52,855 nt of DNA from a virus (Duplodnaviria > Caudoviricetes), in the IMG/VR virus record IMGVR_UViG_3300044995_000307, positions 1-52,855 of that record. One strand, given 5' to 3'. Below the pieces are notes generated by a model. The model saw only the letters and a program-made list of their open reading frames with translations, searched no databases and was not told the origin of the DNA. Positions 18,857 through 43,746 of this stretch are shown piece by piece (positions within the stretch are counted from its first letter, which is position 1; the number at the start of each line of letters is the position of its first letter). The position numbers and the translations under genes are program-made.

Positions 18857-19090
18857 TTAAGAAATTTTTTCTATGAATGATTCTTCATTATTAATGGTTA
18901 TTAAACCCTCTGTACTAGCAGAATTTATAATAGCAGTAATTCTTTCTTTTGATGTATTACAAAAATGTTCTTGTAATTCTTTAAAAGTAAATTTCTTTTT
19001 CTTTTTTTCTTTAAATAAAAACATTAAATCATTGTGATCTAATGAATCACCAAGCAATTTATAATCGCCATTAAGATATTTTATCTTCAT
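18857..19090 (-). CDS. Small winged-helix-like protein
   Basis: FTFKELQEHF..SKERITAIINSASTEGLI pattern. Confidence 0.5.
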   Translation of the reverse strand: MKIKYLNGDYKLLGDSLDHNDLMFLFKEKKKKKFTFKELQEHFCNTSKERITAIINSASTEGLITINNEESFIEKIS

Positions 19091-26847: not shown

Positions 26848-29507
26848 ACAGATTCTTTAGCATTTACTATTTCTAAATTACTAAATCCATTAGTATTTTT
26901 AATATTTATATAATTGTCAAAATAGGAATTGCTAATTGGAGAATGATTTACTACCAATATCTTTATCTTATAAATGTCTACGATATATTTTTTTAATAAA
27001 TCTAATGTTATATTTATATTTTCAGAATGTAATGATGAAAATACTTCATCATAAAAACAAAAGTTAATTCCTGGATATCTAGTTATCATTAATTTCATAA
27101 TAGAGATTAATATAGCAGTATCTATCATTTTTTTCTGACCAGTACTAATATTTGATATTTCTCTATGATTTCTGTATAATATTGGCTTAAATTCAGAATT
27201 GAATTTGCATCGAATATTTATATTTTGCTCCAGTAATATTGAGTTGATATTATTGTTTATCTCTGGAGTATAATTTTTAATGATATAAGACTTGATACCA
27301 GCATCTGATATAGTTTTTTGAAAAATTAAATGATTGATTAAATATTCTTTTTTGTTTTCTAATAAAGATAGCTTTGCTTCTTTTTCTTCTTGTAATTTTT
27401 TTAATTTGGCTTCCTGTGATAATAGATGGCTGTCTATTGAATCAGAATTTATTTTGTTTATCTCTTCTTTAATTAGTAATAATCGTTGTGTAACGTTTGA
27501 TATTAATTCACTATTATTTTTAAGTAATTCCTCTTTTACTTTAAGAGAATTTATATCTTCATTATGACTATTTATGTTAGCAATATCTACGTTAGTATTA
27601 TAATAATCACCTAGTTCTGATTTTTTAGCTTGTATAAATGATTCTAATGCAGATTTATCTGATTGTAGTTTTATTATTTTATTAATTATGTTATCTAAAT
27701 GATTTTTTTTAGGTAATAAGTTACTTTTTATAGCATTTAATTCATTTGTTATTGACTCTTCATCTATTGGCTCTTCTACAAAATTAGAAAATTTTTCTTT
27801 ATTGTTATTAATAAAAAACTCTAAAGAGTTAATTTCTTTGTCCAGATTTAATAATGAAGATTTAACAAAATATAAATCCTCTTTTTCTAATTTAATTAGG
27901 TCTTTTTCTAAATGTAATATTTCTTTTTCAAGATCGTTAATGTCTTCTATATTAAAATTTTCATTTAATAAAGAATCATATTCTGGAATTCTGGTAAATC
28001 CACTTGTTAAATCCTTTATTCTATAATCACTATTGATAATGGATTGCTTAATAATTTCAATTCTTTTACCACAATCATGAAGTAATATTTCTTGAGATTC
28101 TAATAATTTAGCGTTTTCTACAAATGTTTTTTCTAATGTTTCTAATTCATCTTTTATTTCTACCAAATGTGACTTATGAGAATCTGAACTTAATTCTGTA
28201 TAGCATGTTGGACAAATACCATTCTCATAAGCTTTTACAATGCTTTTGTTCTTTGATATTTCTTTTTGTAAATCTTGGGATATATTTTTGTATGATTTTA
28301 TTAAATCATTTATCGATGAAAATAATTTTTCTTCATTAAATAAAGCAGTTTTATATTGCTCTAATTCATCATTACATTGTTTCAGTAATTCTTTATTTTC
28401 TTTAGATTTTTTATAATATAACTTTAATTCCAATAATTTTTTCTTTTCTTGTAAACTTGACTGTTTCTCTTGCAAACTTCTTTCTAATAAAGATAAACTT
28501 TCTTTTTTTAAAGATTCTTCGCTTTTAAGTTGTTCTAATTTAGACAATTGGTCTTGGAAAAATTTGAACTCTTTTATTAATGATAATTTATCAAATTTTT
28601 TATTTATATTCAATATGCTTTCATTGATAATGTTAATTTCATTAGTAGTATCATTTTTTTGTTTAGAAAGTTCTTCTAATTGTAATATAATATTTTTTAA
28701 TTCAGATTCTTTTAGTACAGTAATATAATTGAGTATTGATACTTTTAATGATTTTATTTCTTTTTTAAGAGAGACGTCTGTTGTTTGTAACTGTTTTAAA
28801 TATTCTTCCTTTTGATTTAATTCATTGGTAAGCTCTTCAAATTTTTTCTTTTTTTCTTCTTTTTGATTTTTTATATAATCATCTATATTTTCTTTAATAC
28901 TTAATATCAAATTTTCATTTGAGTCGATTTCGTATTCTAATTTTTGTATTTCTTGTTGTATTAATGATATTTCTTTAGATACAGAGGTAAACATATCATT
29001 TAATACAAAAAAAGAAAATAATCTGTCTCTTATTTTTCTACAATCATCCGCTGATAATTCTAAAAAAGATTTTGATTGCCCAATTGCAGGATTTACTATA
29101 TTGTTGAATAACTGATACGGATACTCTAATATGTTTTCTTTAATGAACTTTTTAGTTTCTGGAATCAAGCCAGTATTTTCTGGAGATTCACTATCCCCTT
29201 TAAAAACTTTTAAAGAATTTAAAGATGAGATACCATAGTTAGATTCTATTCTCCAAATAGACCCATCTCTTTTTTTATAATAAACACAAATAAATCCATT
29301 ACCATTAATTTCATTTGCTATTTCTTTTACTGGAATTGAATCATATTCTTGATAAAGACCTATTTTGATTATTTTTATTATAGAACTTTTACCAACACCA
29401 TTTTGTCCACATACTTGCGTAAAATTACCTAATTTATCAAAATCAATTTCTTGCATTGTGTTACCATACGCAAATATATTTTTAAATTTTACTTTTAATA
29501 TAGCCAT
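26844..29507 (-). CDS. SbcC/Rad50-like ATPase (T4 gp46-like)
   Basis: FKN, GQNGVGKSS, long coiled coil, CPTC hook, ISTGQK, FYDE, H-loop. Confidence 0.93.
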   Translation of the reverse strand: MAILKVKFKNIFAYGNTMQEIDFDKLGNFTQVCGQNGVGKSSIIKIIKIGLYQEYDSIPVKEIANEINGNGFICVYYKKRDGSIWRIESNYGISSLNSLKVFKGDSESPENTGLIPETKKFIKENILEYPYQLFNNIVNPAIGQSKSFLELSADDCRKIRDRLFSFFVLNDMFTSVSKEISLIQQEIQKLEYEIDSNENLILSIKENIDDYIKNQKEEKKKKFEELTNELNQKEEYLKQLQTTDVSLKKEIKSLKVSILNYITVLKESELKNIILQLEELSKQKNDTTNEINIINESILNINKKFDKLSLIKEFKFFQDQLSKLEQLKSEESLKKESLSLLERSLQEKQSSLQEKKKLLELKLYYKKSKENKELLKQCNDELEQYKTALFNEEKLFSSINDLIKSYKNISQDLQKEISKNKSIVKAYENGICPTCYTELSSDSHKSHLVEIKDELETLEKTFVENAKLLESQEILLHDCGKRIEIIKQSIINSDYRIKDLTSGFTRIPEYDSLLNENFNIEDINDLEKEILHLEKDLIKLEKEDLYFVKSSLLNLDKEINSLEFFINNNKEKFSNFVEEPIDEESITNELNAIKSNLLPKKNHLDNIINKIIKLQSDKSALESFIQAKKSELGDYYNTNVDIANINSHNEDINSLKVKEELLKNNSELISNVTQRLLLIKEEINKINSDSIDSHLLSQEAKLKKLQEEKEAKLSLLENKKEYLINHLIFQKTISDAGIKSYIIKNYTPEINNNINSILLEQNINIRCKFNSEFKPILYRNHREISNISTGQKKMIDTAILISIMKLMITRYPGINFCFYDEVFSSLHSENINITLDLLKKYIVDIYKIKILVVNHSPISNSYFDNYINIKNTNGFSNLEIVNAKESV

Positions 29508-29508: not shown

Positions 29509-30654
29509 TTAATCAGTTATTTCTTTATTAAATTCTCTATATAAATCGTCAAATTTCTTTACTAGAAAATCTTTTACAACATCGTTCAATACTACCTCTT
29601 GCTTTTCAAGTATAACAGCAGACAGTTCATTTATAAATTTATTATAATAATCGTTTATTGATAAAAATTCATTATTTTGTGACTCTTCAAAATCGTCATT
29701 GTATATAGTACCTATTGGGTCAAATCTTATACTCTTATAAGAATCTATATTAGAACTAATGAAATTTGTATTAAATGGCTTTAAAGATCCAGGAACAAGT
29801 AATCTTACAAATTTATTACTTAGTATTTCCTTAGCTTCACTTACTTCTTTGTTTATTAAATTGACATAATTTTCTACAAGATATTTTGGACTTACCTTAT
29901 TTTCTATAACTTTTAATTCATTTGTTAAATAATCATAAACTTCTACATAATTAGAATTACCTTGCTCTTGCCATCTCGTTTGATAAGGGCTACCGATATA
30001 TTTTACATTTTTTATTATTTGTCTTGTATGAATATGACCCATTATTACTTCATTAAAAGTTTGAAAATCATTGACAGACAAATTATTTTCTTTTTCTACT
30101 GGTAACCCCTCTTTAGAAAACCCATATATGTCGTTGTGGCCATATAAATTATAGCACCCATCTTCTTTTGCTTGTGAAACAAATGAATTAAATTGATTTT
30201 TATCATGTATATATGGTATCAATAAATTCTTTCTGCCATTTATGTCATTAACATAAAAAGGCTTATCTATGATATAAGAATTTTTTATTAGAGAAAATGA
30301 AAAATTAGCATTAATTTCTATCTTATCGGTAAAAGGTGTATCATGATTACCAACTAAGAAGAATAATTGTACATTATTGATTTTAGCAAGCTCTAAATTA
30401 AGTGAAAGAAAATAACAAAAAATAGTAACATCTATTGTTTGCTTTTTATCAAATTGATCACCTAAAAATATTATAGAAATATTCCTGTTAGGATTACTCA
30501 ACGACAAATCCTTTACTAGAGGTATTAATATTTTTTCATAGAATTCTTTTGTAACGTTAAACATTTCTAAAGAATTCTGATTTCTTCCTACATGTAAATC
30601 TCCTACCCTAACCGTTAAATCTAATTGAAGGCAATTTAACAAACTTATAGACAT
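29509..30654 (-). CDS. SbcD/Mre11-like nuclease (T4 gp47-like)
   Basis: GDLH, GD.FD, GNHD, GH, GHIH, YIGSP; directly upstream of the gp46-like gene. Confidence 0.92.
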   Translation of the reverse strand: MSISLLNCLQLDLTVRVGDLHVGRNQNSLEMFNVTKEFYEKILIPLVKDLSLSNPNRNISIIFLGDQFDKKQTIDVTIFCYFLSLNLELAKINNVQLFFLVGNHDTPFTDKIEINANFSFSLIKNSYIIDKPFYVNDINGRKNLLIPYIHDKNQFNSFVSQAKEDGCYNLYGHNDIYGFSKEGLPVEKENNLSVNDFQTFNEVIMGHIHTRQIIKNVKYIGSPYQTRWQEQGNSNYVEVYDYLTNELKVIENKVSPKYLVENYVNLINKEVSEAKEILSNKFVRLLVPGSLKPFNTNFISSNIDSYKSIRFDPIGTIYNDDFEESQNNEFLSINDYYNKFINELSAVILEKQEVVLNDVVKDFLVKKFDDLYREFNKEITD

Positions 30655-32192: not shown

Positions 32193-32702
32193 TTATAGTA
32201 TTTCGTTAATATCAGTGTTACTAGAAATTTTGTCTAAATCATCAAATTTTTCTTTTGGTCTAGGCTGATATATTACATTTCTGCCTTTAGGATATCTTTC
32301 ATTAAGTTTTAATACATTATATTTTATAATATCCATTAAAGTAAAATTAAATAATTTTAATAATACCATATAATACCACAATAAATCTCCCATTTCTGAT
32401 TTTAACTTGCTTTTATCAAGCTTTTTACCATGATAAATTGATTTTCTTATTAAAGAAGTAATTTCTCCAGACTCTTCGTTAATTCCCATTATCACAGAAG
32501 ATAGCTGATCTGAACGATTTTCTATAATAGATTCATTGAATCCTCTTATGCAATACTCTGAATATTTGTTAATATAGTCATTATGACTTCTTGTAATATA
32601 ATTGTTGGTTGGAAAAACTATTTTAAAGAAAAATATTTTAAAAACTTTATACTCTCTTAAAAGAGAATGATCTTTTTTATCTAATAATTCATATAGTCTC
32701 AT
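32193..32702 (-). CDS. MazG-like nucleotide pyrophosphohydrolase (MazZ candidate)
   Basis: GINEESGE...KSEMGDLLWY...NVLKLNERYP acidic ExxE/ExxD pattern. Confidence 0.85.
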   Translation of the reverse strand: MRLYELLDKKDHSLLREYKVFKIFFFKIVFPTNNYITRSHNDYINKYSEYCIRGFNESIIENRSDQLSSVIMGINEESGEITSLIRKSIYHGKKLDKSKLKSEMGDLLWYYMVLLKLFNFTLMDIIKYNVLKLNERYPKGRNVIYQPRPKEKFDDLDKISSNTDINEIL

Positions 32703-32753
32703 TGCTATTATAAAATATTAACAAAAGTTGGTTTCATCTTTAAATACAATTAA

Positions 32754-32790
32754 TTTTTTGCCTGAACTTAAGTAAGCTCAGGCAAAAAAA
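32754..32790. terminator. Terminator-like hairpin
   Basis: ttttttgcctgaactta-ag-taagctcaggcaaaaaaa (one mismatch, G-U on the minus strand). Confidence 0.75.
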
Positions 32791-32808
32791 ATATGAATTA
32801 AATTTATT

Positions 32809-33231
32809 TTATTCGCTTGTTTCTGATTCGCTTGTTTCTGATTCGCTTGTTTCTAATTTATCTAATATTTCTTGAGCTAATGTTACTGTTTTTTCTATTT
32901 CAGGAACAAAAGGAATTGTTTGTTTTATAAAAAATTCTTCATTAATGATTTCTTTAGAAAACAATCTTTTACCAGCATCATATTCTAAAAATGATGCTGC
33001 ATAGATCATTTCTGCAGTATCTGCTGGATTGTCATTATTTAAAGACAATAATTCTTTAAAACTGACTGGTACTGCTAAAGAACCTTTATAATCAAAAATT
33101 TTTTTAGCAACTTTTAAAAAATCTGCTTTTGAAACACCAGATTTTAATTCTACTAAATAACCATTTATTACCTGTCTTTCAACAGTTGGTTGAACATTAC
33201 TGATTAATTGTGATTTAACTATTGTAGCCAT
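32809..33231 (-). CDS. Hypothetical protein with (ETSES)3 tail
   Basis: 140 aa ORF followed by a terminator hairpin. Confidence 0.75.
   Translation of the reverse strand: MATIVKSQLISNVQPTVERQVINGYLVELKSGVSKADFLKVAKKIFDYKGSLAVPVSFKELLSLNNDNPADTAEMIYAASFLEYDAGKRLFSKEIINEEFFIKQTIPFVPEIEKTVTLAQEILDKLETSESETSESETSE
32811..32854. repeat. 15 bp x3 tandem repeat
   Basis: attcgcttgtttctg three times (last copy 14 nt). Confidence 0.95.
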
Positions 33232-33297
33232 TTTTAATTTTAATTTTGATTTGAATGATATTTATTAATATATATACACAACCCAAAATTAAAAAAT

Positions 33298-33780
33298 ATG
33301 ATAGATGATGATTTAATAGAACAAGAAATGAGAAGAATAAATGGCTTCAATGAAGAAGACATCATAGAAGAAAATGATTATCCTTACCAAGAAAAAGAAA
33401 TTATAGAAGAAAATGATAATATTGACTTTTATGGAAACATAAAAGTTATGATGAAAGATGGCTTGCCTTATCTGCCACCAGAAAATTCAATAATTGAAAA
33501 AGAAACAACTAACAATCAGCAACCAATACAAAAAAGTTCTAATACAAATAATAAAGAAATATTAATATTGCTAGAAAAAGCAAAAAAAGAAGAAATAGAA
33601 CTGACGATTAAGATAAGTACAATTAAGAAGAGTTTATTTAATGTATTAATGGAAAATTTCCCAGAGGATAAAGAAAAAATATTAGAAATCTTATCTGATG
33701 GTATAGATCAATCAGATAGGGAAATGTTGAGATCATCTATAAAAGAATCTATTAAAAAATATTTTGATGAACAAAATTAA
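33298..33780 (+). CDS. Acidic hypothetical protein
   Basis: 160 aa ORF. Confidence 0.7.
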   Translation: MIDDDLIEQEMRRINGFNEEDIIEENDYPYQEKEIIEENDNIDFYGNIKVMMKDGLPYLPPENSIIEKETTNNQQPIQKSSNTNNKEILILLEKAKKEEIELTIKISTIKKSLFNVLMENFPEDKEKILEILSDGIDQSDREMLRSSIKESIKKYFDEQN

Positions 33781-34120
33781 AATAGTGCTATCAGAAGTTT
33801 TTTTAGATGATGATATATTTCCTGGATACGAACTGATTGATGTTGGTAAAAGCAATTTATTCCAAAAAAACAATGATATAAATATATTTTTTGATGTAAA
33901 AAGATTAATAGAAGAATGTAATAAACTTATATCAAAAAATCAAAAACCACTAGTTATTTTAGTTAACTCAAAAGTAGATAATGAAGCTATATATGATAAA
34001 ATTTTCAATATGAATATACCTTTGTCTTTATCATTAATAATGGAAGAATTTAGAGAAGACAAAAGATTTGAAAAAATCTATACGGTTGATGAAAATTTAT
34101 TAGTAAAAATACATATCTAA
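33764..34120 (+). CDS. Hypothetical protein
   Basis: 118 aa ORF, coupled to neighbours. Confidence 0.65.
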   Translation: MMNKIKIVLSEVFLDDDIFPGYELIDVGKSNLFQKNNDINIFFDVKRLIEECNKLISKNQKPLVILVNSKVDNEAIYDKIFNMNIPLSLSLIMEEFREDKRFEKIYTVDENLLVKIHI

Positions 34121-34818
34121 TGAGAGTGTTTAATTTTTTTTCATTTAGGAATATAAAAAAGAATGAAAAAGGCGATCTTGAATTTACAAAGCCGTTAATA
34201 GAAAATTTCAAAAACGTTACTAAAGAACAATCTTCCTTCATCATTACTAAAGAATTAGAAATGAGACCAGATCTAATATCCAACTTAGTAACAGAAGAAA
34301 ATGAAGATTTTTCTGATATGATATTAAAACAAAATGGATTAGGTTGCTTTACAGAAATAAGAGAAAATATGATTATTGAGATTCCAAATGTAAATTCTGT
34401 ATTAGCACAAATTAAAAAAACCAACCAAAAACAAGAAAATCAATCCAAAAAAGAGCTTAATAAAAAATTACCAATAAAAGATAAACAAAGATTATTAGAA
34501 ATAATAGAAATTAATGAAATAAGAACACCAAACATGGTTGCTGAAGGCTCTTCACCAATAGAGGTTAGCAATGGTGTTATTGAGTTAGGGACTGATGTTG
34601 TTTCTAAAAAATGTAAACAAGATTTAACTAAATCTCAATTAATTTCAGAACAGATAAAGAAAGCTATTAAAGATAAAATAAAAAACCAAAACGATCAAAC
34701 AACTAATTTTGAAGAAATATCAAATGCTTCAAAAAGAGTAGAAGCAACTTTATTTTTTAACAATAAGCAAGCAGAAAAAAATAATATTAGCAACTTTAAA
34801 TTAAACCAATCTTTTTAG
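34120..34818 (+). CDS. Baseplate wedge protein (gp53/LysM-like N-terminus)
   Basis: EMRPDLIS...DMILKQNGL...IRENMIIEIP. Confidence 0.6.
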   Translation: MRVFNFFSFRNIKKNEKGDLEFTKPLIENFKNVTKEQSSFIITKELEMRPDLISNLVTEENEDFSDMILKQNGLGCFTEIRENMIIEIPNVNSVLAQIKKTNQKQENQSKKELNKKLPIKDKQRLLEIIEINEIRTPNMVAEGSSPIEVSNGVIELGTDVVSKKCKQDLTKSQLISEQIKKAIKDKIKNQNDQTTNFEEISNASKRVEATLFFNNKQAEKNNISNFKLNQSF

Positions 34819-36127
34819 CTAAACTCAATCTAATAGATTCTTTTAATTTTAAATCTGATATTATACTATACATTTTTTCTTTATTAAAAGAATCATTATT
34901 TCTAAATATTTCTTTAGTTAATTCATAAGAATTATCTACTCCTTTTATTTTTAAATAAAGTTGAATGAATTCTGAATAAACTTGATAATTGTTATCTAGT
35001 TTTTTTGAATCTTTGTTTACGTAAAGTTCTCTAATACCACTAGAAATATTTTGTATAGCTAAAGATAAATGTGCATAAGGAACTGCTATATTTCTCATGA
35101 TAGTGCTATCACTAAGATCTCTTTGTAATCTAGAAATTTCTAATTCATTTATAAATACATCAAATAAAGCCTTAGAAATTTTTAAATTACCTTCTGCATT
35201 TTCAAATTTTATAGGATTTACTTTATGAGACATAGTACTACTTCCAACTTGCTCTTTATCAACTGCAATTAAAAAATCACCATTATGTATGGAAATCCAA
35301 ATATTTTTACACATGTCTTCAAGTATTATAGCAATTCTTTTGAATTTTTCCATATTATCTCTAATAGAAGAGTAATAATCTATTTGTGAAGTTAACTCAT
35401 AGCTACTATATCTTTCAAAATTGTTTCTGAAATTTGTATTTTCCCTAACGTATCGATTAACAAATGATAAAAAGAAATAATTCCAATCAAATTTAGAATC
35501 TATTAATTTCAAACTAAAGAGATTATTAACAGCACCACCAAATTTTATTTTACCATTTTTTAATTGATCAATTTGATTTTTAATTCTTTCTTTGTAAGTA
35601 GAGAAATATTCATTTACAGTAATTGGTATTGCTATTTTACCATGTGTATATGAAGGTAATTTTGCATTTAAATCAATTGAAGAAAAAGAACTTTCCATAA
35701 CAAAAAGCTCTTTTATTATGTTATTGTTTAATTCTATAGCACAAATATTGTAATAAAGTATGTTTAAATCTTGACTTGTTAAACCAAAATGTAAAAATCT
35801 TGCAAAATTTTGTAAGTTATATTGAGATAATATGTAACTTGCAGTATATTCAATACTTTTTATTTCATGTTTTGTAACAGATTCTTGTTTCTTAAAAAAA
35901 TCTATAATTTTATCTTTTTCTTCTTTATTATTGCGAATATTTTCTTTTATTAAAGAAAATGCTGCTTTTTCGTCTTTAGTTAATTCCTTTTTTAAGTAAT
36001 TTAATAAGAAATGTTCTAAATAACAAATTTCAATATTAATGTATGTTAGTATTTTTTTATCTTCACTGATAATATTATTAATATTTGCTAACTTATCAGA
36101 GTATCTAGAATCTAATGGACTTATCAT
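34796..36127 (-). CDS. purB: Adenylosuccinate lyase (divergent)
   Basis: ISPLDSRY, HFGLTSQD, THG, KFGGA, GSSTMSHKVNPIKFENAEGN, SRLQRDLSDST.MRN. Confidence 0.93.
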   Translation of the reverse strand: MISPLDSRYSDKLANINNIISEDKKILTYINIEICYLEHFLLNYLKKELTKDEKAAFSLIKENIRNNKEEKDKIIDFFKKQESVTKHEIKSIEYTASYILSQYNLQNFARFLHFGLTSQDLNILYYNICAIELNNNIIKELFVMESSFSSIDLNAKLPSYTHGKIAIPITVNEYFSTYKERIKNQIDQLKNGKIKFGGAVNNLFSLKLIDSKFDWNYFFLSFVNRYVRENTNFRNNFERYSSYELTSQIDYYSSIRDNMEKFKRIAIILEDMCKNIWISIHNGDFLIAVDKEQVGSSTMSHKVNPIKFENAEGNLKISKALFDVFINELEISRLQRDLSDSTIMRNIAVPYAHLSLAIQNISSGIRELYVNKDSKKLDNNYQVYSEFIQLYLKIKGVDNSYELTKEIFRNNDSFNKEKMYSIISDLKLKESIRLSLAKKIGLI

Positions 36128-36129
36128 TT

Positions 36130-36558
36130 TTAAATAGTTTTTATTGTAATAATGGTAGTAGTTATTAATAAAGTAGTTAACAATAGGTAGTTTAGTAGAT
36201 TAGATAATACAAGCTTTCCTTTTAAAGACTTGTTTTCATCTTGTAAATATTTTATATCAGCATTTTTTATTGTAATTATTGAATCTTTCAAATTTACTTG
36301 CAATTGTAAATTTTTTATTTGATTTCCCTGCACAAGTTGTATAGAGTCATTTATTAAATTTAATTTTTGATTATTAATGTCTTTTTGTTGCAAATAATCT
36401 CTTTCAGCAATTATCATATTAACTAATATGATTTCTTTGTGAGAAAGAAAAACACCACTATCTTTTTCTAATACTATCTTCTTGAGCGATTGCCCTTGAC
36501 AAAAATAAGATAGATTCATCAAGAGAATTATTAGAAAGAATCTGTATTTTGTTTTCAT
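36130..36558 (-). CDS. Signal peptide + coiled coil + C-terminal TM protein (spanin-like)
   Basis: MKTKYRFFLIILLMNLSYFCQG|Q; hydrophobic C-terminus; overlaps the upstream gene by 101 nt. Confidence 0.55.
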   Translation of the reverse strand: MKTKYRFFLIILLMNLSYFCQGQSLKKIVLEKDSGVFLSHKEIILVNMIIAERDYLQQKDINNQKLNLINDSIQLVQGNQIKNLQLQVNLKDSIITIKNADIKYLQDENKSLKGKLVLSNLLNYLLLTTLLITTTIITIKTI

Positions 36559-36808
36559 AATCTTTTTTTATTATATAGTTATTTGTTACAATTTGTGATT
36601 TAGAAGAATCTAATAAAATTTTTATTGAATCTAATTTTAAAAAATCTTTTTTTAAATCTTTAATTTGATTTTCTATATTAGATGTATCTACTGGTTTATA
36701 GCTTTTTTTAATATCATTAAGATAATAAAATAAACCAGCTAAGCATAATATTAATAAAATTATTATTAATACTATTTTATAGTCCACTTGGCTCTCCGAT
36801 TTTTCCAT
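36458..36808 (-). CDS. N-terminally anchored coiled-coil protein (i-spanin-like)
   Basis: TM IVLIIILLILCLAGLFYYL followed by coiled coil. Confidence 0.55.
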   Translation of the reverse strand: MEKSESQVDYKIVLIIILLILCLAGLFYYLNDIKKSYKPVDTSNIENQIKDLKKDFLKLDSIKILLDSSKSQIVTNNYIIKKDYENKIQILSNNSLDESILFLSRAIAQEDSIRKR

Positions 36809-38684
36809 ACGGGTTATTTGGTTTATTAGTACTTGTTCCTATATTTCTGTTATTGAAAATTAATTCACAATTATCTATAACGTCTGCAACACTAGGTTTC
36901 GGTAATATTCTACAAGAATTTATTACATGCTGATATTCAAAGTCTAAGCATCTATTGAAAAATCTTATATTTGAAATATTTAAATTAGATCCCAACAAGT
37001 AAGGGCTACCATTATTGATATCTATGTTTAGAAAATTAGAAGTTTCTTCTATTTTATCATGCAGCAGTAAACTTGTTGAATTAGTATTATCATCTAATAA
37101 ATTCCATATGTATGTTCCAAAATACTTAAATTGATTATTAATATTAAAATTAATACAATACCACTTATTTAAATCTAAAGGAGTTATATTAAAATGTCTT
37201 TGATTAATGCCATACATTAATAAGATTTTATCTTCCAATAAAAATAAGGATAACTGCTTTTCTCCATTTATATTAAACAAATTAAATGAATCAACTAAAG
37301 TTAATTGAGATTGCTCTTGAGTAGATAATAATCTTGGAAGTTCTATTATAAATTTATTGTTAACTATGCCTCTTATTTGATAATACTTATTACCAATTTG
37401 TAATATTTTATATTCCTTATAAATTGATGTTTTACTAATATCAAATTCTAATTCCAATAAGTCATTGCTAATACTTTGAGATATAAAATTGATATTAATA
37501 TTATCTAATTTTTTAGTTAATCGTATCCAAGAAGCATAGCCAAATGATTTATCTTTGTTAATATTAATTTTTGCTTTATAAGACAAAGCTACGTTAAATT
37601 TACTTATAAAAGAAAAGTTATACATGTTCTTTATTAATTCAGAGCCATTATTACGAATATCTACAAACGATATCGTATTATTGCTATCAACATATTCTCT
37701 AACATTATCATCAGATAAAGTTTTATTAGAATTTTGATTGTCATCTACAATATCTTGTATATCTTCTTTTTCCTCTTTTGAATATATCTTATCTAAATTT
37801 AAAGTAAAATCTTCTAAAAATTTAATTGTATCATCAGATTTTTCTACAGATTTATCATCTTCAAATTCATCTAAATAAAGCACATAAGAAAGTGCTGATT
37901 GGTTAGTACCTTTTTTAAGATAATTGCTACTAACATAGTACATCTTATTTTCTATTGGGAAATATAAAAAATCGCCATTAGTTGGTTTTTCATTTAGTCC
38001 AAATATTGATTCAAAATAATTTTTATCAACCTCTACTTCAAAATTCTCAAATTCATAACCCCATTCAGTTATTTCTGGTTTATTTTCTGGAAACTGGTCT
38101 TCTTGTAAAAATAAATTAATACATTTATATTCTTCTTCTTTATAATGAGTATAAGTTCTTAAAGATGAATTAACCCCGCTAGGTAATGGTTTTATATGCC
38201 AATAATTTGCTTTAACTCCTCTATTAGAGTTTAACCAAAAATTTAATTTTTTATCAATATTAGCAGCAAATTCACCTATTTCTAAAAAATCGAAAGTTTT
38301 AAATTCAGAATATTCATTTAAATCAGGATCTATATTTTGTGGATATGTTTTTTCTTCAAATTCTATTAATAATCTATAAGATTTGATTGTAACAGGCTGT
38401 AAAATAGAATTAGAAGACATAAAAAATTTAAAACCAATATAAAATGGCTGTTGCTCTGGAACTGGTACTTTATCATCCACTATAGACCAAAGACTCCAGT
38501 TTTTATTATCAAAACTTGTAGAATAATACACCACTATAGAGTGATTATTAGTATAATTTTCAAATTCATGGCTGAAACTTATACTAATTACATCTTTAAA
38601 ATTATCTGGTATTTTATGTATGAATAAGCTGCCTTGATTTTTTAAAATATGATTTACTTTATAGACAAATTCTTTCATCATCAA
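36777..38684 (-). CDS. Neck/head-closure protein (gp14-like) with added domains
   Basis: ITEWG.EF...FESIFG..EKPTNGDFLYFPIENKMYYV; C-terminal LamG-like pattern (SWIR, LNKWYCI, ISNIRFFN). Confidence 0.6.
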   Translation of the reverse strand: MMMKEFVYKVNHILKNQGSLFIHKIPDNFKDVISISFSHEFENYTNNHSIVVYYSTSFDNKNWSLWSIVDDKVPVPEQQPFYIGFKFFMSSNSILQPVTIKSYRLLIEFEEKTYPQNIDPDLNEYSEFKTFDFLEIGEFAANIDKKLNFWLNSNRGVKANYWHIKPLPSGVNSSLRTYTHYKEEEYKCINLFLQEDQFPENKPEITEWGYEFENFEVEVDKNYFESIFGLNEKPTNGDFLYFPIENKMYYVSSNYLKKGTNQSALSYVLYLDEFEDDKSVEKSDDTIKFLEDFTLNLDKIYSKEEKEDIQDIVDDNQNSNKTLSDDNVREYVDSNNTISFVDIRNNGSELIKNMYNFSFISKFNVALSYKAKININKDKSFGYASWIRLTKKLDNININFISQSISNDLLELEFDISKTSIYKEYKILQIGNKYYQIRGIVNNKFIIELPRLLSTQEQSQLTLVDSFNLFNINGEKQLSLFLLEDKILLMYGINQRHFNITPLDLNKWYCINFNINNQFKYFGTYIWNLLDDNTNSTSLLLHDKIEETSNFLNIDINNGSPYLLGSNLNISNIRFFNRCLDFEYQHVINSCRILPKPSVADVIDNCELIFNNRNIGTSTNKPNNPYGKIGEPSGL

Positions 38685-38710
38685 ATATGTATCATTAAAG
38701 TATATAAAAC

Positions 38711-39193
38711 ATGTATAAAATAAAATTAATATCTTTATTTAAAGAGATAAGATTTCAACTAGAAATTAGAGAAATTTTTAAAGAAATAGTATTAAATGCT
38801 ACAATACAAGAAAAGTACTCTATTAAAGATGAAGAAGGTGAAGAAAATGGAGTTAACCTATCAAAAATGAACGTATTATACGTTTGGATACCAATACCAG
38901 ATAGATTAGAACCACAGCAACATGAATCTTTTATAAGTAATTATTTACAATTGCTTAGCGATATAATGATGCAAAGTGATTTAATAGGTCTACTTAAAAC
39001 TGATGCTTTGGCATTTAAAAATGAAGACAGTTATTATTTTTTAATAAAATATTATAGACCATTTCCTCTTAAAGTATTATTCTATTCATTAATAGAATTA
39101 AGTATACTTTCATTATTATTTTCTTATTTTATAAAAAAATCAGATATAATTTTCAATATTTTAAAAACATTAATTAATCATTTATTTCTATGA
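38711..39193 (+). CDS. Hypothetical membrane protein
   Basis: C-terminal hydrophobic helix. Confidence 0.65.
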   Translation: MYKIKLISLFKEIRFQLEIREIFKEIVLNATIQEKYSIKDEEGEENGVNLSKMNVLYVWIPIPDRLEPQQHESFISNYLQLLSDIMMQSDLIGLLKTDALAFKNEDSYYFLIKYYRPFPLKVLFYSLIELSILSLLFSYFIKKSDIIFNILKTLINHLFL

Positions 39194-39810
39194 ATAAAAA
39201 ATATTTTTATTATTTGTTCTTGTTTATACCGTTTTGTTCATCTACAGTATCCGCTATACACATAGAAAAATTTTTAAGACTTGGTAATCCCATATGGTTA
39301 AGTATACCAGTAGCTTCTGTTTATGAAGCTGCTAATATAATTATAGTAATGCTATTATCTGACAAAATATTAAAAAATAGGACATTTGCCTTTATTACAT
39401 TTATAATTTTAATATTTATGCAGGTAGTTGGTAACGTATATTTTTCATATGAATATTATTCTAAGTATATTGTTGGAGATTATTTTAAAGAAATATATTC
39501 AATAATATTTGATGAAACTGATGAAAAATTTATTAAAGTAATATTGTCTTTATTAATAGGTGCTGTAATACCAATAGTGTCTCTATTATTGACAAAAATA
39601 ATATCAGACATGAAAAATGAAAACGAAGAAAAATTAGACCAAGATCCTGTTAAAAAAGAAATAGAAACAGAAGACTTAGTAAAAAAAACAGAGGAGAAAG
39701 AATTAGTAGAAGAAGCTAATAAAGAAGAAATTAAAAACAATTTATCTAATTATCAAGATAAAGATATATATAGTAATATTAGTAATATTAAAACCGATGA
39801 TATTAGATAA
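39190..39810 (+). CDS. Multi-pass membrane protein with charged tail
   Basis: About four hydrophobic segments, then an E/K-rich C-terminus. Confidence 0.7.
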   Translation: MNKKYFYYLFLFIPFCSSTVSAIHIEKFLRLGNPIWLSIPVASVYEAANIIIVMLLSDKILKNRTFAFITFIILIFMQVVGNVYFSYEYYSKYIVGDYFKEIYSIIFDETDEKFIKVILSLLIGAVIPIVSLLLTKIISDMKNENEEKLDQDPVKKEIETEDLVKKTEEKELVEEANKEEIKNNLSNYQDKDIYSNISNIKTDDIR

Positions 39811-40720
39811 AAATACTTGCTTAGAATGTTTTAATTGTGGAGAAAAAGAAAAAAATCTTATACTAGACGTTTTTTGTTTTAAAATAGACTCTGACGATAA
39901 TTGTGATAAATTGTGTTTAAAAGATTTAAAATTACCTGTAACAGATCATTCTTGTCTTACAAAAACATTATTGGAAAAACAAAGTATAATATTAGATTCT
40001 AGCAAAATATTTCTTGTAAAAGTTGATAAAAATAAAAATGTTTGGTGGAGAAAAATAAACAGGTATACAGATTTATTTAAAAATATAAGCTACGACCTAC
40101 AATTACAATTAAACACAGTAAATTTAGCTAATGATAATACATTAATAGAGTATTCATTAACAATGACTCAAAATACGTCTTCTGTGTTAGTTACTTGGAA
40201 TAACTTTCCCACTAGCGTATTTGCTTATAACGGGACTACATGGAGTAATTTGACTAATGTTACATGGAATACTTTCAATCCACTTAATCTTAATACTTTA
40301 CACCAATATCCAACGTTATCATTAAGTGGTGAATTTTCTATGAACTTTGATGGTAACATTCAATCAAAAACTAAAGAAATAACCTTTGAATTAACCAATG
40401 GGTATTTTAAATATTCTATTGTTTGTGAAATTACTTTAGATAAGCTTAATAATACTATAACTAATGAAATAAAATCAGTTATATTAACTGGAGAGTTATA
40501 TTCAGAAGAATTTATAGTTACTAATAAATCTAGTGCAGTAACAAATAATGGTTCAGAGTTACAACTTGATGAAGAACATAACATTTTTACACAAAAGGTA
40601 GAAGAGTTCTTTTCTTTAAAAGGCTTTTTGTTTCTTTCTTCAACAAAAGATATTTCATCTATTAAAATTTTTAACCAAGACAAATCAAGTAAATCTCTTT
40701 CAATTATCAAATATTCATAA
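39797..40720 (+). CDS. Hypothetical protein with Cys-rich N-terminus
   Basis: 307 aa; CLECFNC...C...CDKLC; internal TWNN/TWSN/TWNT segment. Confidence 0.7.
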   Translation: MILDKNTCLECFNCGEKEKNLILDVFCFKIDSDDNCDKLCLKDLKLPVTDHSCLTKTLLEKQSIILDSSKIFLVKVDKNKNVWWRKINRYTDLFKNISYDLQLQLNTVNLANDNTLIEYSLTMTQNTSSVLVTWNNFPTSVFAYNGTTWSNLTNVTWNTFNPLNLNTLHQYPTLSLSGEFSMNFDGNIQSKTKEITFELTNGYFKYSIVCEITLDKLNNTITNEIKSVILTGELYSEEFIVTNKSSAVTNNGSELQLDEEHNIFTQKVEEFFSLKGFLFLSSTKDISSIKIFNQDKSSKSLSIIKYS

Positions 40721-40753
40721 TTGAAACTTGATAAAAATTACTCAATATATATA
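40721..40753 (+). promoter_or_regulatory. Candidate promoter upstream of HU
   Basis: TTGAAAC...AATATATATAAT. Confidence 0.45.
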
Positions 40754-40793
40754 ATCTCACAATTAACTAATTATTAACTAAAAAAAGATCGCT

Positions 40794-41072
40794 ATGACTC
40801 TAGAACAATTAGAAAAAGAAGTTGCGACCGAAACTGGTCTAACTATCAAAGATTCGAAAGCTGCAATCACAGCTATTTCTAAAGCTTTATTAAAAGACTT
40901 AAAGAAAGGTAATTCTACTAGAATTCCTTCTTTGGGAACATTTTCAGTAAAACAGCATAAAGCTAGAACTGGAAAAAACCCAAGAACTCAAGAACCAATT
41001 CAAATTCCTGCTAAAAAAGTTATTGCTTTTAAGGCAGCTAAAGTGGTTCGTGAGGCTATTAACAAAAAATAG
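40794..41072 (+). CDS. hup: HU histone-like DNA-binding protein
   Basis: LGTFSV...ARTGKNPRTQEPIQIPAKKVIAFKA signature. Confidence 0.95.
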   Translation: MTLEQLEKEVATETGLTIKDSKAAITAISKALLKDLKKGNSTRIPSLGTFSVKQHKARTGKNPRTQEPIQIPAKKVIAFKAAKVVREAINKK

Positions 41073-41094
41073 CCTTTTTAAAAAAAAAAGTAAT

Positions 41095-41127
41095 AATGAC
41101 CAACGAAACTAATTCGTTGGTCATTTT
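41095..41127 (+). terminator. Intrinsic terminator after HU
   Basis: aatgaccaacgaa-actaa-ttcgttggtcatt-tt. Confidence 0.8.
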
Positions 41128-41157
41128 ATATTAGTACTTTACTAAAAATCAAATAAT

Positions 41158-41655
41158 ATGAAATATTCTAAATTCAAATCAATCTATTTACAGCTAGAAT
41201 CAATTTCTTCTTATCAAGAATTACCAATAGGTGCTGTTCTTGCAAAAAATCTTTCAAAAATGAAAAAAATTATTACAGAAAAAGAAGAAGAAATTGAAAA
41301 AATAGTACAAAAATATGCAATATTAGATGAAAAAGGTGAATTGCTAGGCATAAAGCAAGAAGATGGCACTAGAAAAGATTTGAAAAAATCTCCATACACT
41401 TATGATGAAATAGACGTAGAAGATAGAGAAAAATTCCAAGAAGAAATTAAAAAAGTAATGGATTCAGAAGTTGAATTTGAACCAATATCAATTTCCTCAT
41501 CTAAAAAAATTTTCGTAAAATACACTAAAGAAGATGATAAAAAAGGCGTAATAACTTTAGAAAGACAATCTACATTAATTGATGAACTAGAGCAAAAACT
41601 AGTACCAGTTGCAATATCGTTTCTAATAGACAATAATATTTTATTAGAAGATTAG
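41158..41655 (+). CDS. Hypothetical protein
   Basis: 165 aa ORF, helical and charged. Confidence 0.7.
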   Translation: MKYSKFKSIYLQLESISSYQELPIGAVLAKNLSKMKKIITEKEEEIEKIVQKYAILDEKGELLGIKQEDGTRKDLKKSPYTYDEIDVEDREKFQEEIKKVMDSEVEFEPISISSSKKIFVKYTKEDDKKGVITLERQSTLIDELEQKLVPVAISFLIDNNILLED

Positions 41656-41670
41656 TGCAATCTTAATAAT

Positions 41671-41708
41671 AATATTCTTTTGGAGGGTTTCCCCTCCAAA
41701 AGAATATT
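41671..41708. terminator. Bidirectional terminator between convergent genes
   Basis: aatattcttttggaggg-tttc-ccctccaaaagaatatt. Confidence 0.85.
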
Positions 41709-41724
41709 TTAAAGTATTACTTTA

Positions 41725-43173
41725 TTAATTATCAAATATAACTTTTGAATCTACAAATTCAGAAGTACCTAATCCGAAAAGATAAACGTTATTATATTTT
41801 TCCATTACTGGCTTAACAAATTGATCTAACCATCGATAACATTTTTGTGATACAAAATCAGTAACCCCTTCCATGTCTGGATCAATCCAATTCATAAAAT
41901 TCATATGAATGTATATTTTATGAATAGTTTGGTTATACTTTATTGCTTCATCAAGATTTATACTAGAGTATGTTGCAACCCTTCTAGGTAATTTAGTAAG
42001 ACTAGTTAATATTGCAGATTCTTTAATAATTATTCCATTTTCTTCTTGTAAGGCTTCCCAAGTAATTTCTTTAGAATCTGGGAAAAAATCTCCGCTGTAT
42101 GAGTCAACTTTATTATAAGGTATTGATGGATATCTGTCTATTAATGGTTTAGTAAGATGTATGTTAGGCCTGCTAGTTACATAGATAAACTTATCTCTAA
42201 TTATTATTTCAAAATAATCGGGCGGATATTCATTAGCAATAGGTTTTATTAATTGTGCTATTTTTTCACTAATAGAGTCAGAATCTTCTGGTAGATTTTC
42301 TCCAAAATGATTCTTATATAACTCTTCAATAGAATAAGAATTTATTGACTCTGATTTGCTAATTAATTTATAAGAAGCTATTCTAATAGGATAAGTTCTA
42401 TCATTAAGGAATACGTTACCAACAACAGATGGTGGTAAAAATCCATCATTTAAAGCAGAACTAACTGTAACATTTCTGCTAGTGGTATAAGGAGCAAATC
42501 TCCAATAATTATTACTTAATGGAAATCCTTGCCCAATAGAGTATAAACCACTTTTACCTTTACTTAATAAGTCTAAAATTTCCTCTTCTACTACACATAC
42601 CATATCCGATATTTCTTTAATATCTTTAGCAGTAACTAAAGTTTTATTTCTAACAGCTTTTTTAGCAAGAACAGCACCACTACCAGAAGCAGTAGTACCA
42701 GTTTTTATAGTTCCATCTCTAAGATCTTCTTCGCTATAATAATTACCATCTAGATCACATAAACCTTTTTCAAAATCTATATCAATTTTTTGAATAACAG
42801 CTGCTCTACTAGAAATTCTTACTTTTGATCTTGGAATACCACAAAATTCTATTTCTTTAAATAAAGATTCTAGTTCAAAACTTGCTCCAGAAGTAATGAA
42901 TATTTTTTCAAGTTTGTCATGGTACAATGAACCGCTAGGTAAAGCTTTAAAAACTATTTCTACTTTTTCTCCATTAGAATTTGTGTCTGTTACCGTATGA
43001 GAAGCATTTGCAGAATTACTAGTCAAAATAAATGAATAATCAGTATTTTTAACTAAAAAAGCTTCTAAAGAGCCTTTACCAGAGCTACCTTGTGCAGCAT
43101 CTAAAAGAAAATTTATTTTACCAGGAATTATGGTATTATTAAGTTTGTTTGAGTAATTAAATTTGTTTTTCAT
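41725..43173 (-). CDS. purZ: PurZ-type adenylosuccinate synthetase homologue (candidate N6-succino-2-amino-dAMP synthetase)
   Basis: LLDAAQGSSGKG (Ser at the PurA Asp13 position), NASHT, LPSG, GTTASGSG, QGFPLS, PYTTSR, RTYPIRIA, SG..PDS.E, TSLTKLPRRV, NFMNW. PurA fold is near certain; the PurZ assignment is probable. Confidence 0.78.
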   Translation of the reverse strand: MKNKFNYSNKLNNTIIPGKINFLLDAAQGSSGKGSLEAFLVKNTDYSFILTSNSANASHTVTDTNSNGEKVEIVFKALPSGSLYHDKLEKIFITSGASFELESLFKEIEFCGIPRSKVRISSRAAVIQKIDIDFEKGLCDLDGNYYSEEDLRDGTIKTGTTASGSGAVLAKKAVRNKTLVTAKDIKEISDMVCVVEEEILDLLSKGKSGLYSIGQGFPLSNNYWRFAPYTTSRNVTVSSALNDGFLPPSVVGNVFLNDRTYPIRIASYKLISKSESINSYSIEELYKNHFGENLPEDSDSISEKIAQLIKPIANEYPPDYFEIIIRDKFIYVTSRPNIHLTKPLIDRYPSIPYNKVDSYSGDFFPDSKEITWEALQEENGIIIKESAILTSLTKLPRRVATYSSINLDEAIKYNQTIHKIYIHMNFMNWIDPDMEGVTDFVSQKCYRWLDQFVKPVMEKYNNVYLFGLGTSEFVDSKVIFDN

Positions 43174-43250
43174 ATTAATTCGTATTATATTAATTAGTAA
43201 AATTTATTTGCCTTAATAAATTTGCTAGTTATAAACTTATTTTATTAAAA

Positions 43251-43282
43251 CTGTAATAATAGAAAATATAATTTTTGTTTCA
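43251..43282 (-). promoter_or_regulatory. Candidate promoter upstream of purZ (TGAAAC...TATTAT)
   Basis: Minus strand reads TGAAACAAAAATTATATTTTCTATTATTACAG; TGAAAC recurs upstream of several other genes. Confidence 0.4.
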
Positions 43283-43323
43283 GTATGTCTATAACAAAGA
43301 TAAAAAAACATAAAATAAAAATA

Positions 43324-43746
43324 TTATTTTGAAAAAATATATTTAAAGGAAATATTAAAAGTACAATTATAAACTATTCCAATAATTAATAAAGACAGTA
43401 ATACTGCTAATACATTGGTATTAACAATAAAAAAACCACACATTATTAAAGAAATTATTTTGATACTTTTAAAAAAATGCCAAGCGTCACAAAATTGAAC
43501 AGGAATATTTATGCCAATTTTAAAAAAAGATATTTTCTTTCTAGAGCCATCTTCATTATACTTATTTTTCCAACCAACATTATAATGATCTGCAAAAAAA
43601 TATAATATGAAATGATGTAATCTGGTTGTTGGCTTTTCTATATTAAATATAGATTTATTCCAATGGAAACATATTTTATCCATTATAGCACTTGAAAAAC
43701 CAGACAATAATGAAAAAAATATCATTAAAAGTATTTTGATTAACAT
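43324..43746 (-). CDS. Membrane protein
   Basis: N- and C-terminal TM helices; AIMD...WKNKY...DAWHFFK. Confidence 0.7.
   Translation of the reverse strand: MLIKILLMIFFSLLSGFSSAIMDKICFHWNKSIFNIEKPTTRLHHFILYFFADHYNVGWKNKYNEDGSRKKISFFKIGINIPVQFCDAWHFFKSIKIISLIMCGFFIVNTNVLAVLLSLLIIGIVYNCTFNISFKYIFSK

Follow-up and report, generated by a model that had tools for sequence, protein, structure and literature searches.

The stretch of DNA analysed here (the window, 52,855 nucleotides; IMG/VR record IMGVR_UViG_3300044995_000307, Caudoviricetes) is a fragment with a CheckV completeness of 34 %, which implies a whole genome of about 155 kb. Its GC content is 25.1 %, with 36 % A and 39 % T. The chassis is T4-like, comprising a tail sheath, a UvsX-like recombinase, gp41-like and Dda-like helicases, a gp46/47-like nuclease and the C-terminal half of a split family-B DNA polymerase (23920-25185, minus strand; PF00136 match; phrog_262 positions 483-839 of 856), which in relatives is present as two separate ORFs. 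This agrees with the T4-like, AT-rich, PolB-carrying chassis of the original prediction; the term "giant" used there was too strong, as the complete relatives measure 129-167 kb. The gp47/SbcD-like nuclease subunit (29509-30654, minus strand; Metallophos; phrog_100) has homologues between PurB and PurZ in two related loci (L013 and L017) and marks a conserved DNA-metabolism neighbourhood housing both genes in relatives.

Three candidate pathway genes and their surroundings

Three genes, all on the minus strand as predicted, encode a MazG-type nucleoside-triphosphate pyrophosphohydrolase (P0003, 169 aa; 32193-32702), an adenylosuccinate lyase PurB (P0002, 443 aa; 34796-36127) and a long-form PurZ-type synthetase (P0001, 482 aa; 41725-43173). 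They had been described as interleaved with virion genes, a description that goes too far: the intervening ORFs give only an HU-like DNA-binding protein (40794-41072) and a weak PHROG "tail sheath" match (34120-34818, E 3e-7), the others being without assignable function.

P0003 matches PF03819 (E 1.4e-9; 38.5 bits against a cut-off of 22) and phrog_229, "MazG-like pyrophosphatase". Because only its residues 36-161 align to a relative, the annotated start may be too far upstream. With the MazZ of cyanophage S-2L and the MazG of T4-like cyanophages it shares the all-alpha NTP pyrophosphohydrolase superfamily and the EExGE and E..D metal motifs, but S-2L MazZ belongs to a different Pfam family (DUF550, PF04447) and BLAST finds no similarity between the two. 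The candidate gene for the first step is thus a PF03819 member and not, as the comparison with S-2L would have it, a member of DUF550. MazG is common in T4-like cyanophages; for this reason, and as P0003 is not MazZ/DUF550, its role is read only from its conserved position, at a distance of about 2 kb from PurB that recurs in five relatives (G014-G018). It is plausibly a candidate supplier of dGMP from dGTP.

P0002 has the domain architecture of bacterial PurB of the E. coli type, with Lyase_1 (E 1.8e-17) and ASL_C (E 1.5e-25), and keeps the catalytic loop SSxMxxKxNP as SSTMSHKVNP. It differs from the bacterial enzymes in being phage-encoded, in scoring 281 bits with NCBIfam PRK09285 (cut-off 446) and in being only about 35 % identical to the closest cellular PurB, all named ones being from Bacteroidota. 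The phage PurBs are on very long branches (1.5-5 substitutions per site; the bacterial median is 0.22). A genuine counterpart of P0002 was found in only one of 50,697 cultured-phage records, that of Flavobacterium phage MaF61, a cultured relative. In all described Z phages, i.e., those carrying 2-aminoadenine (Z), the lyase step is taken from the host. The proposal that this phage would supply it is partly supported: the gene is there and its linkage is kept in relatives, while its chemistry is a prediction.

Signature residues and phylogeny of the synthetase

The Pfam Adenylsucc_synt match of P0001 (PF00709, E 1.2e-11) is confined to its N-terminal third. The top NCBIfam model is PurZ (NF038379) with 109.8 bits, below the curated cut-off of 300, and an archaeal PurA model is close behind with 94.5 bits; both scores count against assigning the enzyme to Z synthesis. 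The top PDB sequence match is the PurZ of Vibrio phage phiVC8 (4.6e-22), which like that of S-2L (PDB 6FM1, 7ODX) is a succino-2-amino-deoxyadenylate synthetase. P0001 is 28 % identical to the phiVC8 and S-2L enzymes over about half the length, and its family is 28-30 % identical to characterised PurZ. The AF2 model (pLDDT 95.8) has the short-type adenylosuccinate-synthetase fold of these enzymes (TM 0.82-0.86, normalised to target); since Foldseek ranks the PurA of P. horikoshii and PurZ about equally, the fold does not discriminate between the two.

The residues are more telling. The P-loop of P0001 is GSSGKG (GSTGKG in phiVC8 and S-2L PurZ), with Ser at the position of the catalytic Asp13 of E. 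coli PurA. In the alignments this Asp is kept in all four canonical PurAs and in the archaeal PurA of P. horikoshii (PDB 5K7X), which has the short fold as well. Ser was present in all 128 P-loops located among the best 150 homologues of P0001, the motif not being located in the remaining 22. PMC12884076 gives the Asp-to-Ser change for 100 % of 147 phage PurZ-group sequences. Ser13 is not unique to PurZ: it also occurs in cellular short "GSEGKG" PurA paralogues of Acidobacteriota, Planctomycetota, Nitrosomonas, Sphingomonadaceae and others (at least 494 loci), which coexist with a canonical PurA in the four bacterial genomes checked, and in PurZ0 of Gordonia phage Archimedes and Arthrobacter phage Wayne (PDB 7VF6). 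Both groups share the short fold with P0001 but, unlike it, keep Glu14 and the GTP-type, guanine-binding Asp (D333 in E. coli), which was found in 4/4 PurA, 20/20 cellular Ser-type paralogues and 2/2 PurZ0. According to PMC12884076, the PurZ0 phages carry DutZ/DmtZ.

At the D333 position, the three characterised PurZ have N, N and Q, and P0001 has N428 within an ATP-type N-F-x-N donor pocket (N425-F426-M-N428) as in characterised PurZ. The 22-member core family has N in 19 members, D in two and W in one at this position, and 21 of the 22 have F at the position of F306 of S-2L. P0001 is therefore predicted to use ATP, which suits PurZ and not AMP synthesis. T273 of S-2L corresponds to T390, the LTKLPRR motif matches VTKLPRR of S-2L, and the substrate-contacting residues common to PurZ are kept (S30, T390, R264, R397/R398, Q215 and H59). 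Against the Z assignment, F12 of phiVC8 PurZ, to which a part in accommodating the 2-amino group is ascribed, is replaced by Q28 and is variable across the family. Homing-endonuclease inteins were found in 4/4 tested long homologues of P0001; such inteins are typical of important phage genes and were counted in favour of the Z assignment.

The greater length of P0001 (482 aa versus 343-359 aa in characterised PurZ) comes from about 90 inserted residues (about 267-355; 42109-42375, minus strand, from alignments). The insertion comes immediately after the P-I-R-I strand, where S-2L has a PurZ-specific loop insertion of 9 aa (A242-W250), and is modelled as strands and helices with a pLDDT of 88-96. 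Its length varies among family members. P0001 belongs to an undescribed long subfamily that carries this insertion. PMC8342488 attributes to the PurZ-specific loop a role in excluding the ribose 2'-OH. As the insertion adjoins a loop reading the sugar 2' position, specificity could have changed, which counts against the Z assignment.

In a synthetase tree of 99 rows (PMSF model), a split with support 99/98 separates four PurA, two PurZ0 and the 20 cellular paralogues, the latter forming their own clade, from the three characterised PurZ, 12 PurZ-clade representatives, 31 others and 27 family rows. P0001 is on the PurZ side, and its core family has support 100/100. A quick tree gave the same split at 98. 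The branching order inside the 73-row PurZ-side clade has a bootstrap of only about 48-49 %, not converged. Taken together, signature residues, donor pocket and tree position indicate that P0001 is PurZ-like and not PurA-like. The original naming of the synthetase as PurZ is upheld by these data and by the conserved linkage, and falls short in the profile score.

Conservation in related phages

The related set comprises 27 records, eight of which are complete genomes. PurB accompanies the synthetase homologue in 19/27 records (7/8 complete); the complete relative without it, G011, counts against a Z pathway. MazG homologues are present in 15/27 (8/8 complete) and a guanylate-kinase-family gene in 17/27 (8/8 complete), while PolB is found in 8/8 complete relatives and PolA in 0/8. 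In G016 the genes for PurZ, PurB and MazG lie inside 6 kb on one strand, and in G003, G007 and G010 a guanylate-kinase-like gene is beside or near PurZ. P0003 gave no match in MaF61, which also counts against a Z pathway. As the sampled loci of the relatives range from 27 to 55 % GC, the module is not tied to AT-rich genomes. Co-occurrence and linkage in relatives are thus observed directly, as are gene presence, PurZ-type residues and clade membership in the window.

Of the further genes sought, nucleotide kinases were found in the relatives, in the form of the guanylate-kinase-family gene. Cultured phages seldom carry a guanylate-kinase-like gene (20 of 50,697 records at E<=1e-3); the part of this genome outside the window, about two thirds, probably contains one. 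A preprint (10.1101/2025.10.22.683976) assigns dZMP phosphorylation to guanylate kinase, there an enzyme of the host. The window, about 34 % of the genome, holds no DatZ, DUF550/MazZ, DutZ or PolA, and the analysis as a whole found no canonical DatZ, DUF550/MazZ or DpoZ. The search for an HD-domain DatZ gave nothing stronger than weakly matching HD_3-type proteins, in 8/27 relatives at E<=0.1 (three above cut-off), a further point against a Z pathway. dUTPase-family genes occur in 4/27 relatives.

A proposed route to Z nucleotides and its alternatives

The window appears, with fair probability, to encode the central steps of a route to Z deoxynucleotides that is for the most part phage-borne, and the phage PolB would incorporate the product. 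P0003 would supply dGMP from dGTP, and P0001 would convert dGMP, Asp and ATP (or dATP as phosphoryl donor) into N6-succino-2-amino-dAMP, from which P0002 would release fumarate to give dZMP. A phage guanylate-kinase-like enzyme would then phosphorylate dZMP to dZDP, dZTP would be completed by a nucleoside-diphosphate kinase of the host, and insertion of Z opposite T would fall to the split family-B polymerase. What the four enzymes act on, the entry of Z into DNA and the extent of A replacement are deduced from the genes; as no clear dATP-removing enzyme was found, replacement could be partial.

A PurA-like enzyme and PurB form the two-step branch from IMP to AMP, and the pair might be an ordinary auxiliary metabolic set making AMP (dAMP) from IMP (dIMP) for replication of an AT-rich genome. 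The base composition of the window, the fact that no described Z system needs a phage PurB, and the names adenylosuccinate synthetase and lyase given by Pfam and the MaF61 annotation speak for this. It is nevertheless improbable: P0001 has lost the Asp13 kept in every true PurA examined and the GTP-specifying Asp, and lies across the 99/98 split from PurA; relatives reach 53-55 % GC at the sampled loci, the kinase found alongside belongs to the guanylate and not the adenylate family, and a GMP reductase/IMPDH-type gene able to feed IMP was found above cut-off in 0/27 related records. Slightly less improbable, if still unlikely, is that the PurZ fold and ATP use were kept while the enlarged 2'-loop changed the outcome or the substrate accepted (ribo-GMP or a different 6-oxopurine nucleotide, for instance); the product would then not be dZTP for bulk DNA, or Z would be made at the ribo level and later reduced by a phage ribonucleotide reductase. 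The insertion lies exactly at the ribonucleotide-excluding loop, V241 of S-2L is Ile in 18/22 family members, and MaF61 encodes ribonucleotide reductase subunits near its synthetase gene. The low identity and sub-cut-off score speak for this reading as well, and the long PurB branches are compatible with changed constraints. The PurZ substrate contacts are conserved, though, no observation demands a new substrate, and Z in ribonucleotide pools would be expected to enter RNA.

It is very unlikely that the genes serve counter-defence or host shut-off, by draining dGTP/dGMP or by producing dZ nucleotides, with the phage DNA remaining essentially A-containing. No phage with a PurZ-group gene and examined DNA composition is known to lack Z, and four genes with a kinase as the last step would point to a polymerisable product. 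Such a use would agree with the lack of a clear dATPase and of a Z-selective polymerase among the genes found, and with the toxicity to bacteria of an expressed Z cluster described in PMC8342488.

Synthesis of Z nucleotides for DNA, the preferred reading, would place the pathway in a T4-like myovirus of 130-170 kb that has PolB and no DatZ or MazZ adjacent to its synthetase, in contrast to the 38-66 kb phages of the phiVC8/S-2L type with PolA or PrimPol. Host-independent dZMP synthesis, as originally proposed, is favoured by signature residues, phylogeny and module linkage, and is weakened by a MazG outside the MazZ family and by the missing canonical dATP remover. If true, T4-like myoviruses would possess a largely host-independent route to dZ nucleotides.

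The three genes and their T4-like setting

The three genes predicted at 32193-43173 proved to be real open reading frames (ORFs) on the minus strand with the domains expected, and the observation of them is confirmed. A MazG domain was found at 32193-32702 (-), Adenylsucc_synt at 41725-43173 (-), and Lyase_1 with ASL_C at 34796-36127 (-), so that the lyase is indeed encoded by the phage. The 52,855-bp contig has a CheckV completeness of 34% and a GC content of 25.1%. PHROG matches identified a tail sheath (12771-16220), a gp41-like helicase (16988-18853), a UvsX-like recombinase (19090-20571), a Dda-like helicase (5720-7024), gp46/gp47-like nuclease genes (26844-29507 and 29509-30654), and the C-terminal half of a family-B polymerase (PolB; 23920-25185, -), all of which mark a T4-like myovirus. 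The nearest cultured phage is Flavobacterium phage MaF61, with a genome of 167.8 kb and a synthetase identity of 42%, which the text of PMC13269007 describes as a myovirus under electron microscopy. The original prediction of a very AT-rich, contractile-tailed phage with PolB was borne out; "giant" is an overstatement for a genome of roughly 155 kb, and the proposed interleaving of the three genes with virion genes could not be confirmed because most of the intervening ORFs have no assignable function.

The PolB half is a separate ORF of 421 aa flanked by two large homing-endonuclease genes at 20658-22346 (+) and 25213-26847 (+) (phrog_3339/559). Related phages likewise have PolB divided between two ORFs that lie tens of kb from each other. 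Split gp43 genes occur in some T4-like Aeromonas phages. An HU-type DNA-binding protein (PF00216, 9e-26) is encoded at 40794-41072 (+), and homologues lie near the synthetase gene in MaF61 and at loci L010, L022, and L134. PurB is flanked by two proteins of no assigned function. Homologues of the one encoded at 34120-34818 (+), which matches a "tail sheath" PHROG weakly, adjoin PurB at L134, L013, and L017, and those of the other, at 36777-38684 (-), do so at L013, L017, and L022. Nine public runs contain window positions 34000-43500, with shares of sampled words of 0.22-0.99, and 9/9 kept as assembled contigs. All nine carry the label of a hot-springs or microbial-mat metagenome, with two of them possible sources of the contig; a thermal habitat would be notable for a phage of 25% GC.

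The 443-aa PurB (P0002) combines the Lyase_1 and ASL_C architecture with a Ser-bearing fumarate-lyase catalytic loop, and scores below the NCBIfam equivalog cut-offs (281.1 vs 446 bits for NF006764 and 160.5 vs 326 for TIGR00928). It is about 35% identical to the nearest cellular PurB. Since the named cellular relatives are all from Bacteroidota, a host in that phylum is weakly suggested, in line with MaF61. Monophyly of the phage PurB proteins is not claimed, as its SH-aLRT value of 89 rests on very long branches. Among cultured-phage records, a genuine PurB was found in MaF61 only. The PurB matches in "Acinetobacter phage MD-2021a" were rejected as phage genes: the records (CAKLQF020000007.1 and CAKLQH020000006.1) carry purB, trmU, pst genes, and gmk, and resemble bacterial chromosome contigs. 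The MazG protein (P0003, 169 aa) belongs to PF03819, while S-2L MazZ belongs to PF04447. Its first 35 residues (32598-32702) have no counterpart in the homologue of the related contig G016, with which alignment begins only at residue 36, and the true start may lie downstream of the annotated one.

The synthetase and its place beside PurZ

Compared by sequence with solved structures, the 482-aa synthetase (P0001) came closest to PurZ of phiVC8 (4.6e-22) and S-2L (1.3e-16), with PurA of P. horikoshii (1.3e-14) behind them. Its best NCBIfam model was PurZ NF038379 at 109.8 bits, a score that does not reach the curated cut-off of 300. An AlphaFold model of the protein had a pLDDT of 95.8; Foldseek searches with it did not separate archaeal PurA from PurZ.

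Individual residues were more informative. In the alignment, the P-loop reads GSSGKG, with Ser30 in place of the catalytic Asp13 of PurA, the replacement by which PMC12884076 and PMC8515928 recognize the PurZ group; P. horikoshii PurA retains Asp at this position. Ser by itself is not diagnostic of PurZ because cellular paralogues carry it too. The donor pocket, N425-F426-M427-N428, is of the ATP/dATP type, as are NFCN of phiVC8 and NFAQ of S-2L. The residue roles are those given in PMC8342488, where N305, F306, and Q308 of S-2L and N297 of phiVC8 form an ATP/dATP-type pocket as opposed to one with a guanine-binding Asp; further roles in the comparison were taken from the metaGPA preprint. The guanine-binding Asp occupies the last pocket position in 4/4 canonical PurA, 20/20 short cellular paralogues, and 2/2 PurZ0 sequences aligned. 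T390 is equivalent to T273 of S-2L and does not discriminate among Ser-type enzymes, as it is common to PurZ0 and the cellular paralogues. The motif LTKLPRR corresponds to VTKLPRR in S-2L. At the position of phiVC8 F12, P0001 has Q28, and the residues seen in the core family are A (10), F (5), Y (2), and Q (1).

At E<=1e-30, the family of P0001 comprises 46 representative clusters. Its hallmark is an insertion right after the P-I-R-I/V strand, of about 90 aa in P0001 and shorter in some members. At the same site, S-2L PurZ has a 9-residue insertion credited in PMC8342488 with pressing Val241 against the 2' position. The synthetase homologues of 750-850 aa that were tested (P0010, P0019, P0036, and P0085) contained inteins with LAGLIDADG/Hom_end homing endonucleases in 4/4 cases; about a dozen homologues of this length occur among the 150 best matches.

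The phylogeny of PurA, PurZ, and PurZ0 was computed under LG+C20+F+G4 PMSF from 99 rows, namely 4 canonical PurA, 20 cellular paralogues, 2 PurZ0, 3 characterised PurZ, 12 representatives of the PurZ clade, 31 other representatives, and 27 family rows. The rows were drawn from the 150 best matches; a first tree omitted 33 matches outside 330-520 aa, and the 99-row set is a hand-picked subset of its rows, so that still more of the 150 matches are absent. PurA, PurZ0, and the cellular paralogues were split from all other rows with 99% ultrafast bootstrap and 98% SH-aLRT support, and a quick tree agreed with the PMSF tree on this split. P0001 and its family fell on the same side as the PurZ enzymes of phiVC8, S-2L, and SH-Ab 15497, apart from PurA. 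The 22-row core family had a support of 100/100. For the tree as a whole, the bootstrap stopped short of full convergence, and within the PurZ-side clade of 73 rows the branching of lineages is poorly supported. Only sequences on the PurZ side were found to combine Ser with an ATP-type pocket.

The PurZ0 paper is said to assign the two phosphate donors in the order GTP for PurZ0 and ATP for PurZ. The introduction of the preprint 10.1101/2025.10.22.683976 does likewise, whereas a statement in PMC12884076 attributes a preference for "ATP and GTP, respectively" to PurZ0 and PurZ; the latter assignment was set aside because the preprint, the PurZ0 paper, and the residue pattern say the reverse.

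In a genome scan, the short "GSEGKG" paralogue was found at at least 494 cellular loci, and it coexists with canonical PurA in 4/4 bacterial genomes checked. Loci L035-L114 and L119-L126 are of this kind; the paralogue is widespread in bacterial chromosomes, and in one archaeal MAG it is the sole PF00709 match.

The gene set in related phages

Related loci were found with an alignment of 11 sequences, one of 31 sequences having no conserved stretch. The resulting set of 27 records consists of 25 IMG/VR contigs encoding the long form of the synthetase, MaF61, and the window contig; eight of them are complete at >=90%. A PurB homologue is present in 19/27 records and in 7/8 complete ones, a MazG homologue in 15/27 and 8/8, and both a guanylate-kinase family protein and PolB in 17/27 and 8/8. 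In G016, PurZ, PurB, and MazG are encoded on a single strand inside 6 kb, and the ORFs between them gave no informative Pfam match. PurB and PurZ flank gp47 in G004 and G008. Three contigs have the kinase gene about 3.5 kb or less from PurZ: G007 and G010, where it is directly downstream of PurZ, and G003, where it is placed between PurB and PurZ. The kinase gene adjoins MazG in G019 and G020. Cultured phages otherwise seldom carry guanylate-kinase-like genes (20 of 50,697 records). In MaF61, locus L146 (66471-72132) brings three genes together inside 6 kb: a large gene for thymidylate synthase, the guanylate-kinase-like ORF95, whose 278 aa include an N-terminal extension of about 110 aa, and ORF97, an HD_3 "hydrolase".

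The window itself, about a third of the genome, contains no HD, DatZ, DUF550, dUTPase-like, or kinase gene. Domain searches of two sets of 20 window ORFs, together with PHROGs, gave no kinase or HD domain. Similarly, tblastn against the window with DatZ of S-2L, phiVC8, and SH-Ab 15497, MazZ of S-2L, and the dUTPase-like proteins of PurZ0 phages and their neighbours gave nothing below E 0.8. An adjacent DatZ of the YfbR-like/HD_3 type is likewise missing, with no HD or HD_3 match in this 34% of the genome. These searches agree with the remark that DatZ and kinases are not visible there. The wider search proposed for DatZ, DUF550, and kinases brought a mixed outcome, as the kinase family was recovered in the relatives, DUF550 was not, and only distant HD_3 proteins appeared. 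HD_3, the Pfam family of DatZ, matched in 8/27 records at E<=0.1, three of them over the cut-off (MaF61, G001, and G013), and the positive controls phiVC8 and S-2L both matched. The proteins concerned are distant, 250-370 aa in length and thus longer than DatZ, and not encoded next to purZ. Comparison of DatZ, MazZ, and dUTPase-like references with the HD proteins of the relatives by phmmer was marginal, with a best value of 4e-4 in a 17-sequence database. MazZ/DUF550 (PF04447) was found in 0/27 records, a weak absence because the control genomes were also unmatched. PolA, the polymerase family of DpoZ, was present in 1/27 records and in 0/8 complete ones, while the phiVC8 control matched. DpoZ is not universal in Z phages, as S-2L uses PrimPol.

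Readings of the gene set and their meaning

The synthetase and PurB might be an ordinary pair that converts IMP to AMP and simply supply AMP to an AT-rich phage. This explanation is weakened by the loss of Asp13, the ATP-type donor pocket, and the position of P0001 with PurZ in the tree. In addition, the co-occurring kinase is of the guanylate type and not of the adenylate type, and the sampled loci of relatives that bear the module span 27-55% GC. A further point against it concerns a conversion of G to I to A: no GMP reductase or IMPDH was found over the cut-off in the 27 records. Another reading is that the large loop insertion could shift the specificity of the synthetase. For the Z-pathway interpretation, the support comes from sequence, phylogeny, and the linkage of the genes rather than from chemistry. 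Of 17 "unmodified-contig" sequences in the PurZ literature, 3 clustered with PurZ, which would weigh against Z if they belong to the long-form subfamily.

In its full form, that interpretation is put forward tentatively, at slightly less than an even chance. A widespread, undescribed lineage of T4-like myoviruses of 130-170 kb (27-55% GC in the sampled loci), to which MaF61 belongs, would write its DNA with 2-aminoadenine by an almost host-independent route of four enzymes: MazG, a PurZ of the long form whose sugar-reading loop is enlarged, and a PurB and a guanylate-kinase-like enzyme of the phages' own. The Z-DNA would be replicated by a split family-B polymerase, without DatZ, MazZ, or DpoZ. 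In the present phage of 25% GC, found in runs labelled hot-spring or microbial-mat, the three hydrogen bonds of Z:T pairs would also offset the low thermal stability of an AT-rich genome. As the HD_3 proteins exceed DatZ in length and do not adjoin purZ, the means by which dATP would be kept out is in question, and A may be replaced by Z in part only.

In the papers covered, the preprint 10.1101/2025.10.22.683976 among them, Z-genomes are those of small phages that encode PurZ and use the PurB and guanylate kinase of the host. The Z triad of S-2L has been co-expressed in E. coli (PMC8342488). Within the literature covered, on PurZ with adenylosuccinate lyase, PurZ in myoviruses, and diaminopurine in Flavobacterium, the present arrangement was not found described; supplementary tables and trees were outside this scope, and long-form sequences may stand there. 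If the interpretation is true, Z-DNA would extend to large phages that have contractile tails and family-B polymerases, and the long form would be a new PurZ subfamily with an insertion at the specificity loop, accompanied by the first phage-borne PurB and a pathway-dedicated kinase. It would then have to be asked how dATP is kept out without DatZ or DpoZ. The portable set of four genes would be of interest for the production of Z-DNA in heterologous hosts.
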